From a virus (Duplodnaviria; Heunggongvirae; Uroviricota; Caudoviricetes), in the IMG/VR virus record IMGVR_UViG_2778261251_000003: a DNA stretch of 4,850 nt; one strand, 5' to 3'. A program made the position numbers and the translations under genes. Under the pieces are notes generated by a model, which worked only from the letters and a program-made list of their open reading frames with translations, was not told the origin of the DNA and made no database searches. Position 1 is the stretch's first letter. Every line of letters starts with the position of its first letter. Below are positions 23 to 4,464 of this stretch, piece after piece.

Positions 23-337
23 TTATTTATCAGATGTTAGATTGTAATAATTGGTATAAGCTGAAATTGACTTCTGGCATGCTTCAAGAAATTCCTGTGG
101 ATTCATTCCTAGTCTTGCTTGCTCTGTGGTCAGAAAACGCTGTAAGAACTCATCTCCGCCAGGCATTTTTGTTGATTCTTGAAATGTTGCCATTTGTTTG
201 ATTGTGCCGCACATGCCAGCAAATTTCGAAGTTATCATGAGTTCTTGCAGGCCTTTAAGATCGCCATTATCTGATTTTGGTTTGGCGAAAACTATTGTAG
301 AGAAGAACAATATTAACAAAATAGCGATACGTTTCAT
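23..337 (-). CDS. hypothetical small secreted protein (104 aa precursor, about 86 aa mature) with Sec-type signal peptide; function unknown
   Basis: ORF track 23..337 minus. N-terminus MKRIAILLILFFSTIVFA-KPK has a basic n-region, hydrophobic core and V-F-A cleavage-type motif, with no lipobox Cys. Two Cys in the mature part (C43, C87). Its ATG (337-335) overlaps the mnt stop (336-334) as ATGA, implying translational coupling. No family recognised from memory. Confidence 0.6.
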   Translation of the reverse strand: MKRIAILLILFFSTIVFAKPKSDNGDLKGLQELMITSKFAGMCGTIKQMATFQESTKMPGGDEFLQRFLTTEQARLGMNPQEFLEACQKSISAYTNYYNLTSDK

Positions 338-585
338 TTTTCACTGTTGCCATGCATACATTTTAACTTCTCAACCTCATGCTCAAGCTCTATCAACCGC
401 GATGCTATAGTTGCAAGATCTAGTGCTTGAATATGTTTATTTTTTTCAGTCCATGCCTCAAGTGCTGCTACCATCTCAGCATTTAATGAACGAGAATTAG
501 CCTCAGCCAGTTCAATAAGACGTTCCTTTATCTCTACAGGAAGCCTCAGATTCACTTGAGGGTTTTTGTACTTACGATCAGACAT
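334..585 (-). CDS. mnt: Mnt-like ribbon-helix-helix transcriptional repressor (83 aa from ATG at 585-583; the ORF track's GTG at 591 would give 85 aa)
   Basis: Translation ...NPQVNLRLPVEIKERLIELAEANSRSLNAEMVAALEAW... aligns with my recollection of P22 Mnt (…HFNFRMPMEVREKLKFRAEANGRSMNSELLQIVQDAL…), including the RHH beta-strand and ANGRS motif. AGGA Shine-Dalgarno complement at 594-597, about 8 nt upstream of the ATG. 83 aa matches P22 Mnt length. Divergent from arc-ant as in P22 immI. Confidence 0.8.
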   Translation of the reverse strand: MSDRKYKNPQVNLRLPVEIKERLIELAEANSRSLNAEMVAALEAWTEKNKHIQALDLATIASRLIELEHEVEKLKCMHGNSEK

Positions 586-613
586 CGGCACATCCTGAAT
601 AATTTTTTACCAC

Positions 614-642
614 AGGATATGTAGGTATCTATTGACTATCAA
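614..642 (-). promoter_or_regulatory. candidate leftward promoter Pmnt (weak match)
   Basis: On the minus strand, -35 TTGATA (642-637), 17 bp spacer, -10 TATCCT (619-614); alternative extended -10 TGgTAAAAA (612-604). It sits back-to-back with the Pant -35. Hexamer matches are only moderate. Confidence 0.3.
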
Positions 643-660
643 TGCGTACCTAAATACTAT
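632..660 (+). promoter_or_regulatory. candidate sigma70 promoter Pant driving arc-ant
   Basis: -35 TTGACT (632-637), 17 bp spacer, -10 TACTAT (655-660). Predicted start near 667, upstream of the arc RBS AAGGAG (679-684) and ATG 690. Confidence 0.5.
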
Positions 661-689: not shown

Positions 690-836
690 ATGAAAGTTAA
701 GACATTAAGGATGCCAGAATGGCTGGAAAAGGCTTTGGAGCAGTCCGCGAAAAAGGATGATCGGTCGTTCAGTAATGAGGTATTGAGGAGACTAAAGGAG
801 TCAGTAGCTAAGGATGGAATTGTTTGTCCAGAATGA
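690..836 (+). CDS. arc: Arc-like ribbon-helix-helix repressor (48 aa)
   Basis: Absent from the ORF track because it is under 60 aa. Hand translation: MKVKTLRMPEWLEKALEQSAKKDDRSFSNEVLRRLKESVAKDGIVCPE, stop TGA at 834-836. Aligns with recalled P22 Arc (…NLRWPREVLDLVRKVAEENGRSVNSEIYQRVMESFKKEG…), sharing L-R-x-P, RS-x-N-xE and R-x-x-ES-x-K-xG. Strong RBS AAGGAG 5 nt upstream. Sits immediately upstream of ant as in P22. Confidence 0.75.
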   Translation: MKVKTLRMPEWLEKALEQSAKKDDRSFSNEVLRRLKESVAKDGIVCPE

Positions 837-902
837 GTAAAGCCCAAGCTATTGCGAGTAGCTCGGGCTTAAATCGCCAGTAAATTTTGAGGAAAAACTG
901 AC
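835..902 (-). ncRNA. sar: candidate sar-like small antisense RNA (about 65-70 nt) complementary to the ant ribosome-binding site
   Basis: Strong minus-strand promoter inside the 5' end of ant (next feature) predicts a start near 901-902. The transcript would run leftward across the ant SD (TGAGGA 888-893) and end at the 840-870 hairpin. P22 sar is established as a 68-69 nt antisense RNA of this arrangement. Ends are approximate. Confidence 0.4.
840..870. terminator. stem-loop in the arc-ant intercistronic spacer; likely terminator of the leftward sar-type transcript
   Basis: 12 bp stem 840-851 / 859-870 (AAGCCCAAGCTA ... TAGCTCGGGCTT) with a 7 nt loop. The single mismatch (846/864) is A-C on the plus strand but a G-U wobble in the minus-strand RNA. 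The minus-strand RNA is followed by UACUCAUUCU (U-rich); the plus strand has no U-run after the stem. Confidence 0.45.
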
Positions 903-1832
903 ATGAAAAGTATAGCAACAGCAGTATCTACTATCAACGTGCCATTCCACGGCGCAGAGCTTTATGTCGTCAATCACAACGGTGAGCCGTACACCCCAAT
1001 GAAACCTATCGTTGAAGGTATGGGTATGGATTGGGCTTCACAGTTTACGAAAATAAAGCAACGGTTTAAAACCTCCATTGTGAAAATCACAATGCAGCTT
1101 CCTGGTGATGAACAGTGCCGTGAGATTATTTGTTTGGCACTTCGCAAACTTGCTGGCTGGCTGCAAACCATCAGTCCAAACAAAGTCCGCCCTGAAATCC
1201 GCGACAAGGTAATCCAGTATCAGGAAGAGTGTGACGATGTGCTCTACGAGTACTGGACTAAAGGCCATGTAGTTAACCCACGCAAAGCTAAAAAGGCGTT
1301 GCCGGGTAAAATCACCACTGAACAGCAGGAAGCCATTAAACAACTCGTCATGAGTCGCGGTCAGTCTCTGCCAAAAGAAAAACAGGCGAAGGCAATGATT
1401 ACCATGTGGTCGTCGCTGAAATCTCATTTTGGGTGTTCATACAAAGAAATCAGCGATGAGCAGTTTACCGAAGCTCTGTCACTTGCAGCTCGCGTTCCGC
1501 TTGAAGGCGAGTTAATCGGCAAACAAGAGAAGAAAGCAAACGAGCTTTCTGCAAAAGAAGCAAACAGCCTTGTATGGTTATGGGATTATGCCAACCGCTC
1601 ACAGGCATTATTCCGCGAACTGTATCCGGCGCTAAAACAAATTCAATCGAACTATTCAGGCAGATGTCATGACTGTGGTTATGAGTTCTCCCGTATTATC
1701 GATATGGCGAGAGACGTTTTAATCAATCACTCACGAGATGTTGATATCAATGAGCCAGACGGACCAACGAATCTTTCCGCATGGATGAGACTTAAGAATA
1801 AAAAATTACCTCCTTCAGTACATAACTACTGA
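903..1832 (+). CDS. ant: phage antirepressor Ant (309 aa)
   Basis: ORF track 903..1832. N-terminus (…INVPFHGAELYVVNHNGEPYTPMKPIVEGMGMDWASQF…) resembles the phage antirepressor N-terminal domain. Length close to P22 Ant (about 300 aa). Position after arc and before the tailspike matches P22 immI. RBS TGAGGA 888-893. Confidence 0.85.
   Translation: MKSIATAVSTINVPFHGAELYVVNHNGEPYTPMKPIVEGMGMDWASQFTKIKQRFKTSIVKITMQLPGDEQCREIICLALRKLAGWLQTISPNKVRPEIRDKVIQYQEECDDVLYEYWTKGHVVNPRKAKKALPGKITTEQQEAIKQLVMSRGQSLPKEKQAKAMITMWSSLKSHFGCSYKEISDEQFTEALSLAARVPLEGELIGKQEKKANELSAKEANSLVWLWDYANRSQALFRELYPALKQIQSNYSGRCHDCGYEFSRIIDMARDVLINHSRDVDINEPDGPTNLSAWMRLKNKKLPPSVHNY
909..937 (-). promoter_or_regulatory. candidate Psar promoter (minus strand) within the first codons of ant
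   Basis: Minus-strand -35 TTGATA (937-932), exact 17 bp spacer, -10 TATACT (914-909). One of the best sigma70 matches in the window, oriented antisense to ant. Confidence 0.45.
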
Positions 1833-1932: not shown

Positions 1933-2271
1933 ATGACAGACATTACAGCCAATGTGATTGTATCTATGCCTTCGCAACTCTTCACTATGGCGCGTTCTTT
2001 TAAAGCGGTTGCCAATGGCAAAATTTATATCGGTAAAATTGACACTGACCCGGTAAATCCTGAAAACCAGATTCAGGTTTATGTGGAGAACGAAGACGGT
2101 TCTCACGTTCCTGTTTCGCAACCAATCATCATTAACGCTGCTGGATATCCGGTATATAACGGACAGATTGCCAAGTTCGTAACTGAGCAAGGCCATTCCA
2201 TGGCTGTATATGATGCGTATGGTGCGAAGCAGTTCTATTTTCCTAATGTGCTGAAGTATGACCCTGACCAA
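1933..2271 (+). other. tailspike N-terminal head-binding (particle-attachment) domain, ending at the conserved YDPDQ junction
   Basis: Residues 1-113; similarity to recalled P22-family tailspike N-termini stops just after YDPDQ (aa 109-113), the usual module-exchange boundary. Confidence 0.7.
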
Positions 2272-4062
2272 TTTCAGTTCACGCTCTCGTCAGACACTGG
2301 CGCAAATCTTGTCGGCATCAAGAGAACTGGACTGCCAAATAATAACTCTACTACTGTTGGTGCTTACTATCAGACAACACCTATCAACGCGGTAACAGAT
2401 TACGGAATGAAAGGGGATTTCGACCCGTCAACTGGATTTGTTAACGGAACGAATAACCGTTCTGCACTTCAACAATTGATGGATGATCTGGTAAATATCG
2501 GTGGAAACAAAACTGTAACCATTCCTCCGGGTAACTATTACTTCAACTTTGACGGTAGCACTAATCCTGGTGGTGTTGGGGTTATGTGGGGAAGGGTCGG
2601 TGCAGGGTTAAAGAATGTCACATTCCTGTGCTATGGCGCCACATTTTACTCTGGGAGCATTGGCAGACTTAACGGCATATTCAGCGCTAATTATGGTGTA
2701 AGGATAAAAGGCTTGAGAGTGATAGGGTTCGGCGGCGGAACGCTCGCTCCTTCACGAGAAAGGGATGCTATCTTTGCTCTTGCCTACAACTGCTGTGGGG
2801 TAACATTTGATGAGTGTTACTTTGCTAACAGCATGGGGGACTGCGTTTATCTTGGTGGCAGTCTTGATGACGGCTCTATAACTGGATTATTTTGCAGGGA
2901 TATCGCTTTTAATGGCTGTACTTTAAAAGAAAGATACGGGGATGGTATTAGATCTTACTACAGCGGATCTAGGTCAAGGATGGCTATTGCTGTTATCGAC
3001 TGCGTTGGTCTCAGGATTGATAACTGCAAAATAGTAGGCGGAATAGACTTCGAACCAAACGCAACAAACCAGCGCCTGCAGAATATGATGGTAGGTAATA
3101 CCAGGTTCCATGCAGGAAATGTCCTTGCATACACTGGAACAAACCCATTTTACGAGGAGCAAATCAATAGCGGAACTCAGGTTATACGTGGAGACATCCG
3201 ATTCCAGACGCGAGCGGGTGGGGTCATCACTCAGAATATTCATATATCTAACGTATCATTCGACTACGGATGCATCAGGCAGACATCTCTTGGTATAGCT
3301 GACGTTATTTATGAAAACATAAGAATGCGCAGGGGTATATTGGTGGTTGGTTCTGACTCAGGCACAAACTTCAACCCATCTGCAAACTTCAATGATGTTT
3401 ATGTTGATCTGGCTCTTAACGGTTCAGATGATGATATCTTTGAGTTGAATGGGTCAGGCACAACACCTCCTACATTGCCAGCAGTAGTCATGTTGATACA
3501 GGGAAATCTTACATACGCAAGATTTAATGGGATAAGTGGAGGGAATACCATCGGTGCATTTAGTTACCTGTTTTATGCAGATCCAACACACACAGCTGGT
3601 GATGCGGGGAGGAGCATTTACGCAAACTGCAGCATACTTGGCGGTAACCTTTACAACTACACTATCCCGGATAGCAGTCAGGAACTTGGAAACACATCTA
3701 TGCCAGCCTCCGGAGTTGCCTTTACAAAATACCGTAGGATTAATACTGACCTAATCATGCAGTCGGTTGGTGCTCTAAGCATATCCGCAAGCGGTTCAAT
3801 AGACTGGAACGCATTCAGAACAAGCAAATTGGCAGTAACTGCTACCACTACAGGCCTGCAAATATCAGGGATTGTTAATGGCCCTATGGTTGGTGCTGAG
3901 GTTCAGATAAGGAATAGTGGATCAAACCCCATAATTCTGGCTCACAGTACATCTTTCTATCTTAAAGGAACAACTAGTGCCACCCTTGACGATACGAGAA
4001 AGGTGGTGACGTTCCAGTACATCTCTTCAGGAGTATGGACGGAGATATACCGGAACTTTTAA
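1933..4062 (+). CDS. tailspike protein (709 aa): P22-gp9-family N-terminal head-binding domain plus a putative beta-helix receptor-binding/glycan-depolymerase body of unassigned specificity
   Basis: ORF track 1933..4062. RBS GGAG at 1921-1924. First ~113 aa ([43 protein letters not shown]…NVLKYDPDQ) closely match the conserved head-binding domain of P22/Sf6/HK620-type tailspikes as I recall them. The remainder is Gly/Asn/Ser/Thr-rich with repetitive short-strand character typical of parallel beta-helix tailspikes, but I do not recognise it as the P22, Sf6 or HK620 body. Confidence 0.9.
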
Positions 4063-4099: not shown

Positions 4100-4464
4100 T
4101 CATTTCCCATCCCTAAAGACAATGAACTTTTAATAGACGAAACCGCACACCAGACTGATGGCGGAGAAGGTGATAAGAGTGACAATTGGAGGAAGTGCGC
4201 ATCTATCAGCAGCCCATCCAATAGTAGCACTCAGTGTCCCCATGAACCCGACATATAACATGTAGCGCATCGTTGTAGTCGATGTTTTGAATGTGAATCT
4301 TGCATTCGCGAAGAAGCTAAAGCTCACAGCCACAACGAAACCTGCGAAGTTTGCCAAAGCCTGATTGGTATGCTCGGCATAGATACATACACCAAAAACC
4401 ACCCAGTGTATAAGTGTGTTCAGCACACCAATCGAGGTGTGTACTTTGCAAATAGCTTTAACAT
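4100..4464 (-). pseudogene. gtrA: gtrA (bactoprenol-linked glucose translocase of O-antigen glucosylation operons), disrupted by a +2 frameshift and an in-frame stop
   Basis: Minus strand: ATG at 4464-4462 encodes MLKLFAKYT then hits TGA (4422-4420). The -1 frame continues SIGVLNTLIHWVVFGVCIY… (ORF track 4130..4426) to TAA at 4132-4130, after which the same frame reads KFIVFRDGK to a stop at 4102-4100. Joined, this gives a 120 aa GtrA-like protein matching my recollection of SfV/P22 GtrA. Span is 365 nt = 363 + 2. The frame switch maps to the GTGTGT tract at 4437-4442. Confidence 0.6.

Follow-up and report, generated by a model that had tools for sequence, protein, structure and literature searches.

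The segment at positions 836–937 of the DNA analysed here (the window, 4,850 nt in full) is very probably a sar gene carried by a P22-like E. coli prophage. It would comprise a promoter (Psar) within the first twelve codons of ant and an antisense RNA of ~67 nt, both on the minus strand. A sar-type antisense RNA had been proposed at this place in the first-pass annotation, and this sequence-based reading is supported by the immI context of the element, by its end-to-end alignment with the Rfam sar model (RF00262), by a separate covariance model (R1) and by the geometry shared with P22 sar. The element is of a known kind and ordinary, yet it has diverged past the reach of the standard RNA-family model.

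Genetic context of the predicted sar element

The window corresponds to the immI region (mnt-arc-ant, followed by the tailspike gene) of a P22-like E. coli prophage. Open reading frames and Pfam matches place mnt, arc and ant in the same order as in P22, and all three reading frames are full-length. The mnt-like gene (334–591, minus strand) encodes an Arc-family protein of 85 residues (PF03869, E 3e-10); the mnt label is carried by a 92%-identical stretch of CUS-3. The upstream cistron of the Pant transcript, arc (690–836, plus strand), encodes an Arc-family ribbon-helix-helix repressor of 48 residues (PF03869, E 1.6e-5), with which the “Arc-like repressor” of Salmonella phage SEN22 shares 96% identity. 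The Arc allele of the window differs from that of P22, and a tblastn search with it returned nine phage records, none of them P22. The regulated gene, ant (903–1,832, plus strand), encodes an antirepressor of 309 residues that contains the P22_AR_N (E 7e-45) and P22_AR_C (E 1e-26) domains and shares 55% identity with P22 Ant. The host is E. coli here, compared with Salmonella for P22.

A Pant-like promoter (TTGACT-17-TACTAT, 632–660, plus strand; 9/12 consensus) is convergent with Psar and lies ~240 bp upstream of it. It is overlapped by a divergent Pmnt-like promoter (642–614, minus strand; 9/12 consensus), and an inverted repeat (618–635/639–656) represents a possible operator. Within this mnt-arc-ant module, the predicted antisense RNA (836–902, minus strand) occupies the interval from the arc stop codon (834–836) to the ant ATG (903), a stretch that includes the ant Shine-Dalgarno sequence (889–892). 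A minus-strand open reading frame (808–918, 36 residues, TTG start) was dismissed because transcription is predicted to begin downstream of its start.

When a 441-nt query running from mnt to ant was compared with 5,426 complete E. coli genomes, most of the stretch was present in 35 of them; PSJ-36, LR-25 and UMNF18 are examples of E. coli strains that carry this prophage. The records inspected carried no ncRNA annotation at the sar position. RefSeq annotation of sar is also absent for the CUS-3 type, which scores above the Rfam threshold, and “unannotated” status is therefore not peculiar to the window class.

The predicted Psar promoter

The near-consensus minus-strand promoter that the first-pass annotation had described as TTGATA-17-TATACT in ant codons 3–12 was confirmed at 937–909. 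In full it reads TTGATA-17-TGcTATACT, matches 10 of 12 consensus positions and additionally carries the TG of an extended -10, which makes it the top-scoring promoter-like site of the entire window. The -35 hexamer TTGATA (937–932, 5/6 consensus) is encoded by ant codons 10–12 (..ACT ATC AAC), and the extended -10 TGcTATACT (917–909, with the TG at 917–916 and the hexamer at 914–909) by codons 3–5. Promoter geometry and the start of the Rfam sar alignment at 902 both point to G902 as the first transcribed base, seven bases past the -10 and one base 5′ of the ant ATG. This putative sigma-70 promoter inside the 5′ end of ant would thus start transcription immediately 5′ of the ant start codon.

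Because sites matching at least 10 of 12 positions occur in 80% of dinucleotide shuffles of this A+T-rich window, the hexamer match alone is weak evidence; sites that also have the 17-nt spacer and the TG occur in 2.8%. The position of the match and its conservation raise it above chance. The motif TGnTAnAnT occupies the identical place in 26 of 26 distinct ant 5′ ends from at least 13 genera, P22 included, and the CA of ant codon 5, from which the TG derives, is retained though the encoded amino acid varies among Ala, Pro and Thr. A constant 6 nt separates the -10 from the base of stem I, even where the ant ATG has moved by one codon. Most of the compared ant 5′ ends have TTGATA or TTGATT at the -35 site, a conservation that may be partly a by-product of the T-I-N in the conserved protein motif T-I-N-V-P-F.

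Fold of the predicted antisense RNA

The extent of the predicted RNA (902–836, minus strand, ~67 nt) is given by the full-length RF00262 alignment, by R1 and by the fold. Its minimum free energy structure (−24.8 kcal/mol, z −5.9, with 0 of 200 shuffles as good) is identical to the centroid structure and consists of two hairpins; the same interval read as plus-strand RNA reaches −19.6 kcal/mol (z −2.7). An RNA of ~68 nt with two stem-loops, of which the 3′ one is a putative terminator, agrees with the architecture of P22 sar and with the Rfam consensus structure line. Folding of the minus-strand transcript, suggested as a check in the first-pass annotation, thus came out in favour of its proposal, and the product of 65–70 nt that it had predicted, in keeping with the size of P22 sar, is matched by the predicted start at 902 and the length of 67 nt.

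Stem-loop I (876–902), which the earlier description did not include, is composed of a 6-bp stem (GUCAGU/ACUGGC) with one U.G pair and a 15-nt loop (UUUUCCUCAAAAUUU) that contains the anti-Shine-Dalgarno sequence CCUC. Stem-loop II (840–870) is a G+C-rich putative terminator hairpin of 12 bp (AAGCCCGAGCUA/UAGCUUGGGCUU, arms 859–870 and 840–851) that includes seven G-C pairs and one G.U pair and is closed by the 7-nt loop CUCGCAA. A 12-bp hairpin with a single imperfect position, G-U in the minus-strand RNA alone, had been noted before, and this was borne out: the sole non-Watson-Crick position in stem II, 846/864, is G.U in the minus-strand RNA and A.C in the plus-strand RNA. Position 877/901 of stem-loop I repeats the same strand asymmetry.

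The accompanying claim of a U-rich stretch on the minus strand only held in part. The 3′ tail UACUCAUUCUGG (828–839, minus strand), which extends across the arc stop codon into the final arc codons, contains five U in 12 positions versus two in 12 on the plus strand; the tail of P22 sar, CAACUUUACGCG, is no richer in U. The tract is nevertheless modest: the tail following stem II (UACUCAUU) has four U in eight positions, below the scan criterion of at least five T in eight, and gave no terminator call. The sequence at this place in P22 sar, CAACUUUA, does not improve on it, and GCUGUUUUUA forms the tail in many other sar classes. Because this poor U tract fails a simple terminator scan, the 3′ end of the sar RNA is uncertain.

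Homology to the sar RNA family

RF00262 aligned to 836–902 on the minus strand over its complete length (model positions 1–68 of 68) with both helices in register, scoring 29.3 bits with an E value of 2.5e-4 over the 181 nt searched. At the gathering score of 43 bits the model has no match in the window, and the default Rfam threshold does not report the element because 29.3 bits falls below it. At the homologous place, the P22, CUS-3 and L013 types score 70–98 bits (P22 97.8) and are the only ones among the classes compared to pass the threshold. Window-class relatives, the 2851 type and L069 score 28–32 bits, and the RF00262 search gave no match at E ≤1 for the L049 and Oslo elements.

The covariance model R1 was built from the sequences of five unrelated ant loci (Oslo, Yersinia, Erwinia, Klebsiella and Rosenbergiella), with the window-class and P22-class sequences left out, and found the homology independently of the query class. 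It matched the window at 834–903 on the minus strand (29.0 bits, E 5.8e-6) and the P22 sar locus at 1,432–1,501, also on the minus strand (45.4 bits, E 1.5e-10). In 25 of the 33 sources searched, the top R1 match was on the minus strand and no more than a few bases from the ant start; the ant start was less certain in three more, and five sources gave no match at E ≤1.

A blastn search of positions 560–1,000 against phage records (“distant” mode) returned six records, P22 not among them; the relation to P22 was found via the Ant protein and not by nucleotide blastn. An exact-pattern scan for the window-type hairpin, covering one genome per species, found none.

Covariation and strand asymmetry

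The position of Psar and both helices are retained across ~24 sequence classes from at least 13 enterobacterial genera, and the two-hairpin fold was obtained for 28 of 29 distinct junction sequences. Plain MAFFT placed stem I out of register, and stem II too for the window class; we therefore turned first to a helix-anchored alignment padded with N and next to one made with a covariance model. In the latter (24 classes), which like the hand-anchored one is fitted to structure, 96.6% of cells were paired and 13 of 19 pairs showed changes on both sides across classes (four of six in stem I, nine of 13 in stem II). The covariation score was 0.575, compared with 0.261 for shuffles (0 of 500 reached the observed value) and at most 0.117 for slid registers. 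The hand-anchored alignment yielded nine compensated pairs of 20. Plain MAFFT, the third alignment in which covariation was counted, recovered stem II once the window-class sequences were omitted, with eight of 13 pairs compensated. These homologues thus maintain the sar structure by compensatory substitutions.

Among the distinct helices, the minus-strand RNA has 25 G.U pairs and one mismatch, whereas its plus-strand counterpart has 26 mismatches and no G.U pair. The non-Watson-Crick pairs are, bar one, G.U in the minus-strand RNA, and the ant mRNA is therefore mismatched at these positions. In every class the minus-strand fold is 5–12 kcal/mol more stable than its plus-strand counterpart. 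This sequence comparison indicates that selection has maintained the two-hairpin fold on the minus strand alone. Within the window class, the G.U wobble of stem II is reversed to U.G and one of its C-G pairs is replaced by A-U; the variants of this class are only compensatory or wobble-preserving, which points to continuing selection.

Such selection bears on the reading that the locus is a sar-derived relic, with inherited hairpins and hexamers, whose RNA is not usefully made or no longer regulates ant. The weak U tract of the 3′ tail would fit this reading, as would at least one relative (L068) in which half of the terminator hairpin is missing but ant is retained. However, besides the restricted kind of variation just described, the parts in the window are all intact, mnt, arc and ant are full-length, the promoter is nearer to consensus than that of P22 (TTGATA versus GTGTTA at the -35), and 16 viral loci fetched in addition to the window carry an identical copy of the 76-nt element. 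We consider a relic improbable.

It is highly improbable that the 840–870 hairpin is mainly a plus-strand attenuator, terminator or processing/stability element between arc and ant, with the minus-strand promoter a chance match. The hairpin does form on that strand, at the plus-strand energy given above, and shuffled windows do often contain promoter-like sites of similar score. Yet the plus strand lacks a T run downstream of the hairpin (AAATCGCC), the covariance models found no plus-strand match in the window at E ≤1, the extended -10 is conserved at the nucleotide level in 26 ant alleles at a fixed distance from stem I, and the imperfect pairs are G.U on the minus strand and mismatched on the plus strand.

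The sequence could also be a DNA-level palindrome rather than an RNA structure, acting as a protein-binding site or as a recombination joint (“boundary sequence”) where interchangeable arc and ant modules meet. One and the same hairpin II follows at least eight unrelated upstream sequences, one ant 5′ end is found with several different sar bodies, and the CUS-3 record calls the region “bsq2; boundary sequence”. A mosaic joint could, however, also be the terminator of sar, and probably results from the conservation of that element. A DNA palindrome is expected to be strand-symmetric, whereas the wobble/mismatch pattern is strictly one-sided and the compensatory changes preserve RNA pairing amid sequence divergence, which leaves this a very unlikely reading. 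The one-sided wobble pattern led us to reject both the plus-strand terminator and the DNA palindrome.

Comparison with P22 sar and proposed mode of action

The sar RNA is an established component of immI that acts on ant mRNA (PMC2629481, PMC11016777, PMC12111858), with P22 sar described in work cited in the first of these articles (Liao et al, 1987; Wu et al, 1987; Schaefer & McClure, 1997). A P22 homologue has been seen by small-RNA sequencing on the same strand (PMC13397905, Table 2, P22J-sar).

The window element occupies the same place and strand as P22 sar, antisense to the arc-ant intercistronic region of mnt-arc-ant. In both, the promoter is located in the first ant codons and has the -10 TGcTATACT, the 5′ end lies one base before the ant ATG, the loop of hairpin 1 displays the anti-Shine-Dalgarno sequence, and hairpin 2, a terminator in P22 and a putative one in the window, is G+C-rich and begins AAGCCC...GGGCUU. 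The G.U pairs correspond to mRNA mismatches in both RNAs. Differences are found in the length (67 nt here, 68–69 nt in P22) and in stem II, which departs from that of P22 at four pairs, three of them changed on both sides, and has 12 bp and a 7-nt loop, compared with 13–14 bp and a 4-nt loop in P22. The predicted duplex between the window sar and the P22 target reaches −51 kcal/mol versus −120 kcal/mol for the cognate target.

Several other 60–100-nt constitutive countertranscripts, namely OOP of lambda and P22, P22 sas and the plasmid ctRNA/CopA-type RNAs, combine a 5′ recognition stem-loop with a terminator and act post-transcriptionally on the overlapping mRNA. These RNAs have no known homology to sar and target a replication initiator or cII/sieB, in contrast to the antirepressor ribosome-binding site here. 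Weak sub-threshold matches to ctRNA_pGA1 (RF00236, 24–28 bits) fall on the same elements at other loci.

By analogy with P22, the predicted RNA would act as a cis-antisense block of ant translation. The P22 literature suggests that RNA polymerase would start at G902 and terminate past stem-loop II, near 836. The resulting RNA would be perfectly complementary to the arc-ant intercistronic region, with the CCUC of loop I facing the ant Shine-Dalgarno sequence. Its target on the plus-strand arc-ant mRNA (888–905) comprises this GAGG (889–892), which the weaker plus-strand hairpin carries in its loop, and the start codon (903–905). Pairing would prevent ribosome binding and result in post-transcriptional shutdown of Ant synthesis. 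In P22, Psar opposes the strong Pant and is reported to fire mainly after Arc or Mnt has repressed Pant. The window Psar should likewise fire mainly when Pant is repressed, and any ant message still arising from Pant or from late-operon read-through would then be left for sar to neutralise. Because the G.U pairs of sar are A.C mismatches in the mRNA, the regulator would be stably folded and the ant ribosome-binding site more open without sar.

The wider sar family

In at least 13 enterobacterial genera, Psar and two hairpins were found together with an ant homologue, in elements that form about ten or more sequence classes. CUS-3, Stx-phage 2851, phage Oslo and other P22-like or lambdoid prophage types have an antisense element directly upstream of their ant homologue, with the same promoter geometry and two-hairpin fold, and constitute sequence classes separate from that of the window. 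Predicted duplexes range from −116 to −131 kcal/mol for cognate pairs versus −36 to −60 kcal/mol between classes. We tentatively raise the possibility, itself rather doubtful, that the sar family is far larger and more varied than the curated model, that its classes are specificity types, that its modules are shuffled and that the one-sided G.U/A.C pattern is a selected design feature. If so, the RNA of one class would not pair with the target of another, a resident prophage could use its sar against incoming ant mRNAs of the same class alone, exchange at the conserved hairpin would shuffle the arc-sar body separately from the Psar-ant 5′ end, and the one-sided pattern would represent a folded regulator facing an open target.

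The practical gain lies mostly in annotation. The element would control the antirepressor of a prophage type that few complete E. coli genomes contain. At its gathering threshold RF00262 misses the window class and several others, which a wider seed alignment would recover. For the biology of these phages the P22 paradigm is unchanged; the covariation and the strand-specific wobble pairs provide comparative support for the experimentally derived sar structure.

Organisation of the immI region

The window spans 4,850 bases and corresponds to the immI (immunity I) end of a prophage of the P22 type. ORF and Pfam analysis identified an Arc-family gene at the mnt position (334-591, minus strand), the small Arc-family gene arc (690-836, plus strand) and the antirepressor gene ant (903-1832, plus strand), whose 309-aa product contains P22_AR_N and P22_AR_C domains. 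A terminator scan located a strong plus-strand terminator 3' of ant (1850-1869), and a tailspike gene with a P22 head-binding domain spans 1933-4062 on the plus strand. Chromosomal prophages of two E. coli strains, PSJ-36 and LR-25, match the region 560-1000 at 100% identity, and at least 80% of this region is present in 35 of 5,426 complete E. coli genomes. The nearest arc-ant junction in isolated phages is that of Salmonella phage SEN22 (87%).

Upstream of arc, a Pant-like promoter (632-660, plus strand) overlaps a Pmnt-like promoter (642-614, minus strand). Two repeats lie in 614-681, an 18-nt inverted repeat with imperfect arms (618-635/639-656) and a direct one, ATGCGTACC, at 643-651 and 662-670. 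They probably serve as operators for Arc and Mnt in this immI allele, which is not the same as that of P22. Downstream of mnt lies a 104-aa ORF (23-337, minus strand) without a Pfam match; its N-terminus (MKRIAILLILFFSTIVFA) resembles a signal peptide, and the ORF may be a moron gene for a secreted protein or lipoprotein.

The P22-type head-binding domain of the tailspike corresponds to residues 1-116. Among solved structures the best match to the tailspike was 7sg7 ("Gene 14 protein"), limited to residues 1-218, and no PDB sequence matched the receptor-binding part. E. coli PSJ-36 has the identical immI stretch and a tailspike of different length, which places a module boundary between ant and the tailspike body. 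Only 68 bp separate the end of a GtrA-like ORF (4130-4426, minus strand; 98 aa, GTG start, PF04138) from the tailspike stop. The gtrB and gtrC genes normally follow gtrA and this gap has no space for them, so this gtrA looks orphaned or remnant.

The predicted sar promoter

The first-pass annotation had proposed a strong minus-strand promoter within ant codons 3-12, and a matching sequence is indeed present there. The predicted promoter, Psar, consists of TTGATA (937..932) and TATACT (914..909) separated by 17 nt that include TGc (917..915). It matches 10 of 12 consensus positions in addition to the extended -10 TG, is the top promoter-like site of the window and faces the Pant-like promoter at 632-660. 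The predicted start, G902, is the seventh base past the -10 and lies one base before the ant ATG. By themselves the hexamers prove little, because matches of at least 10/12 occurred somewhere in 80% of dinucleotide shuffles of the window, and in 2.8% when the 17-nt spacer and TG were also required; the argument rests on position and conservation.

All 26 distinct ant 5' ends compared, which represent at least 13 genera, have TGnTAnAnT at the same codons, always with a -35-like hexamer 17 nt away. The CA that supplies the -10 TG is kept although the codon specifies Ala, Pro or Thr depending on lineage, a sequence pattern that points to selection on DNA rather than protein. The -35 TTGAT(A/T) overlaps conserved Ile-Asn codons, and its conservation is therefore less telling. 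Where ant is one codon shorter (locus L049, phage Oslo, Erwinia and Klebsiella), the ATG shifts and the spacing from the -10 to stem I is kept within ~1 base.

Fold and strand asymmetry of the predicted RNA

The predicted 67-nt minus-strand RNA (836..902) was subjected to the folding check suggested earlier and gave -24.8 kcal/mol (z -5.9), and none of 200 shuffles did as well; read as plus-strand RNA, these 67 nt reached only -19.6 kcal/mol (z -2.7). Stem-loop II, the predicted terminator hairpin, is formed by the inverted repeat 840-851/859-870 around a 7-nt loop, with the 12 pairs that the first-pass annotation had described. Its sole imperfect pair (846/864) is indeed G.U in RNA from the minus strand, and it reads A.C in RNA from the plus strand. 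We identified a further hairpin missing from that annotation, stem-loop I (876-902), with a 6-bp stem, a 15-nt loop and another one-sided wobble at 877/901; its loop holds CCUC opposite the ant Shine-Dalgarno GAGG (889-892). The proposed minus-strand-specific U-rich tail stood only in part: the plus strand has no T run, but in the minus-strand tail UACUCAUUCUGG 5 of 12 bases are U, and a simple terminator scan does not call it.

The same two hairpins were present in 28 of 29 distinct 76-nt junction sequences, drawn from the window and the 86 loci fetched by then. The sole exception is a close relative, L068 (1390-1460), in which another module has taken the place of arc and of the terminator hairpin's left (plus-strand) arm; this module ends in its own plus-strand terminator (AAACCCACCGTCAGGTGGGTTTTTT), and a sar-like transcript of L068 would be without the terminator hairpin. 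A promoter and two-hairpin element was also observed ~70 nt upstream of ant homologues, on the minus strand, at loci L087-L101 and L119 from Yersinia, Mixta, Erwinia, Klebsiella, Izhakiella, Mangrovibacter, Morganella, Rosenbergiella, Photorhabdus, Brenneria, Raoultella and Providencia.

Covariation was borne out by all three alignments. A plain MAFFT alignment of 23 sequences, with none of the window's own class, recovered stem II with 8/13 pairs changed on both sides. A hand helix-anchored (N-padded) alignment (n=17; 99.7% paired) showed compensation at 9/20 pairs and a covariance-model alignment (n=24; 96.6% paired) at 13/19, counts that are inflated because both alignments were fitted to the structure. 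Covariation in the covariance-model alignment was 0.575, against 0.261 in shuffles (0/500) and at most 0.117 in slid registers; the low slid-register values and the recovery of stem II by MAFFT speak for a genuine signal. In the window class, which includes SEN22 and loci L010 and L032, 4 changes were seen and 0 break pairing: the stem II wobble is G.U to U.G in SEN22 and L032, one C-G is A-U in L032, and one A-U is G.U in stem II of L010 and in stem I of SEN22.

Across the distinct helices of all classes, non-Watson-Crick positions comprise 25 G.U and 1 mismatch as minus-strand RNA, and 0 G.U and 26 mismatches as plus-strand RNA. Helix-calling permitted G.U on the minus strand, which somewhat biases terminal pairs; internal positions show the identical pattern. 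The minus-strand fold is more stable by 5-12 kcal/mol in each class. On these comparisons, the single G-U of the first-pass annotation extends to a property of the whole sar family. Given the one-sided G.U pattern, what selection has kept can be neither a structure in the plus-strand RNA nor a palindrome in the DNA, which would be strand-symmetric.

An unlikely alternative is that hairpin II serves as a DNA-level recombination joint. Hairpin II does lie at a mosaic boundary. At least eight unrelated arc 3' ends adjoin the P22-type terminator hairpin (GAAGCCCCAACTGC...CAGTCAGGGCTTC) on its upstream side, and window-type, CUS-3-type and L013-type sar bodies all occur with one and the same Psar-bearing ant 5' end, so that the hairpin looks like a recurrent mosaic joint (arc-ant junctions, L012-L071, ~1430-1470); the CUS-3 record (L002, 1545-2026) labels the region "bsq2; boundary sequence". 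A joint leaves the one-sided pairing unexplained and is compatible with a conserved sar terminator. Because the genes are intact, the promoter is close to consensus and the variation is purifying or compensatory, the element is unlikely to be a non-functional relic. The evidence argues against a plus-strand attenuator or terminator, which lacks a T run 3' of the hairpin and is contradicted by the wobble pattern.

Homology to sar

At the curated threshold Rfam returned no match within the window. In a permissive scan of 780-960, positions 1-68 of 68 of the Rfam sar model RF00262 aligned to 836..902 on the minus strand with both helices in register, scoring 29.3 bits (E 2.5e-4 for this small search) against a gathering score of 43. 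Homologous loci were reached via the Ant protein in 80 viral contigs, P22, phage Oslo and Stx phage 2851, with 37 more from bacterial assemblies (one genome per species). RF00262 matched at the homologous place in P22 (97.8 bits), the CUS-3 type (84.6), the L013 type (70.1), SEN22 (32.4), L010 (31.3), the 2851 type (29.5), L032 (28.7) and L069 (28.5), with no match at E <=1 in L049 and Oslo. Seven of the ten Rfam-scanned loci, all phage records or viral contigs, fall below the gathering score. Because low scores at the homologous place recur across several classes, the window element represents one of several sar classes under-covered by the curated model.

For a test independent of Rfam and of the window class, a further covariance model (R1) was trained on five sequences without gaps, taken from phage Oslo, Yersinia, Erwinia, Klebsiella and Rosenbergiella. 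R1 matched the window element at 834..903 of the minus strand (29.0 bits, E 5.8e-6; 122 kb, both strands) and the P22 sar locus (45.4 bits, E 1.5e-10); the plus strand of the window had no match. In 25 of 33 sources its best match was antisense and no more than a few bases from the start of ant, the ant start was less certain in three (L099, L101, L120), and five had no match at E <=1. The sar-type reading is supported by every defining feature examined save the curated Rfam score, and the window element is homologous to P22 sar.

Among the RefSeq E. coli matches listed (genomes H76-H98), none has an annotated ncRNA at the sar position, and this includes the CUS-3-type element, which scores above the Rfam gathering score. 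On this basis, sar appears to be unannotated in E. coli prophages.

Proposed mode of action

sar is an established immI member, an antisense RNA that binds ant mRNA and reduces antirepressor synthesis (PMC2629481; PMC11016777; PMC12111858). P22 sar was detected on the same strand by small-RNA sequencing (PMC13397905, Table 2), and the sequence given there matches the fetched P22 locus. Sequence and comparison show the position of the element, its promoter sequence, its fold and the conservation of that fold on one strand, and the later steps are modelled on P22. The window RNA would start at G902 and end near 836. It would be fully complementary to the arc-ant intercistronic region, loop I would face the mRNA's Shine-Dalgarno loop, and the resulting duplex would block ribosome entry at ant. 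Plausibly, the A.C mismatches in ant mRNA keep the ribosome-binding site accessible when sar is absent. Pant transcription in P22 is said, from work of Liao and colleagues in 1987, to interfere with Psar; sar would therefore accumulate after Arc or Mnt shuts Pant.

Predicted duplexes were -116 to -131 kcal/mol for cognate pairs versus -36 to -60 between classes. On such modelled energies, there is a modest probability that the many sar sequence classes are functional specificity types; special selection is unneeded for distinct classes, since cis-antisense RNAs diverge automatically with their targets.

The window differs from P22 in several respects: its host is E. coli, its Arc allele is different, its Ant is only 55% identical, and blastn in "distant" mode with the stretch 560-1000 does not reach P22. 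Stem II differs by three compensated pairs and one one-sided change, its loop is 7 nt rather than 4 nt, and the -35 is better than that of P22. The window element is a diverged sar with no new mechanism and, by analogy, most likely works like P22 sar.
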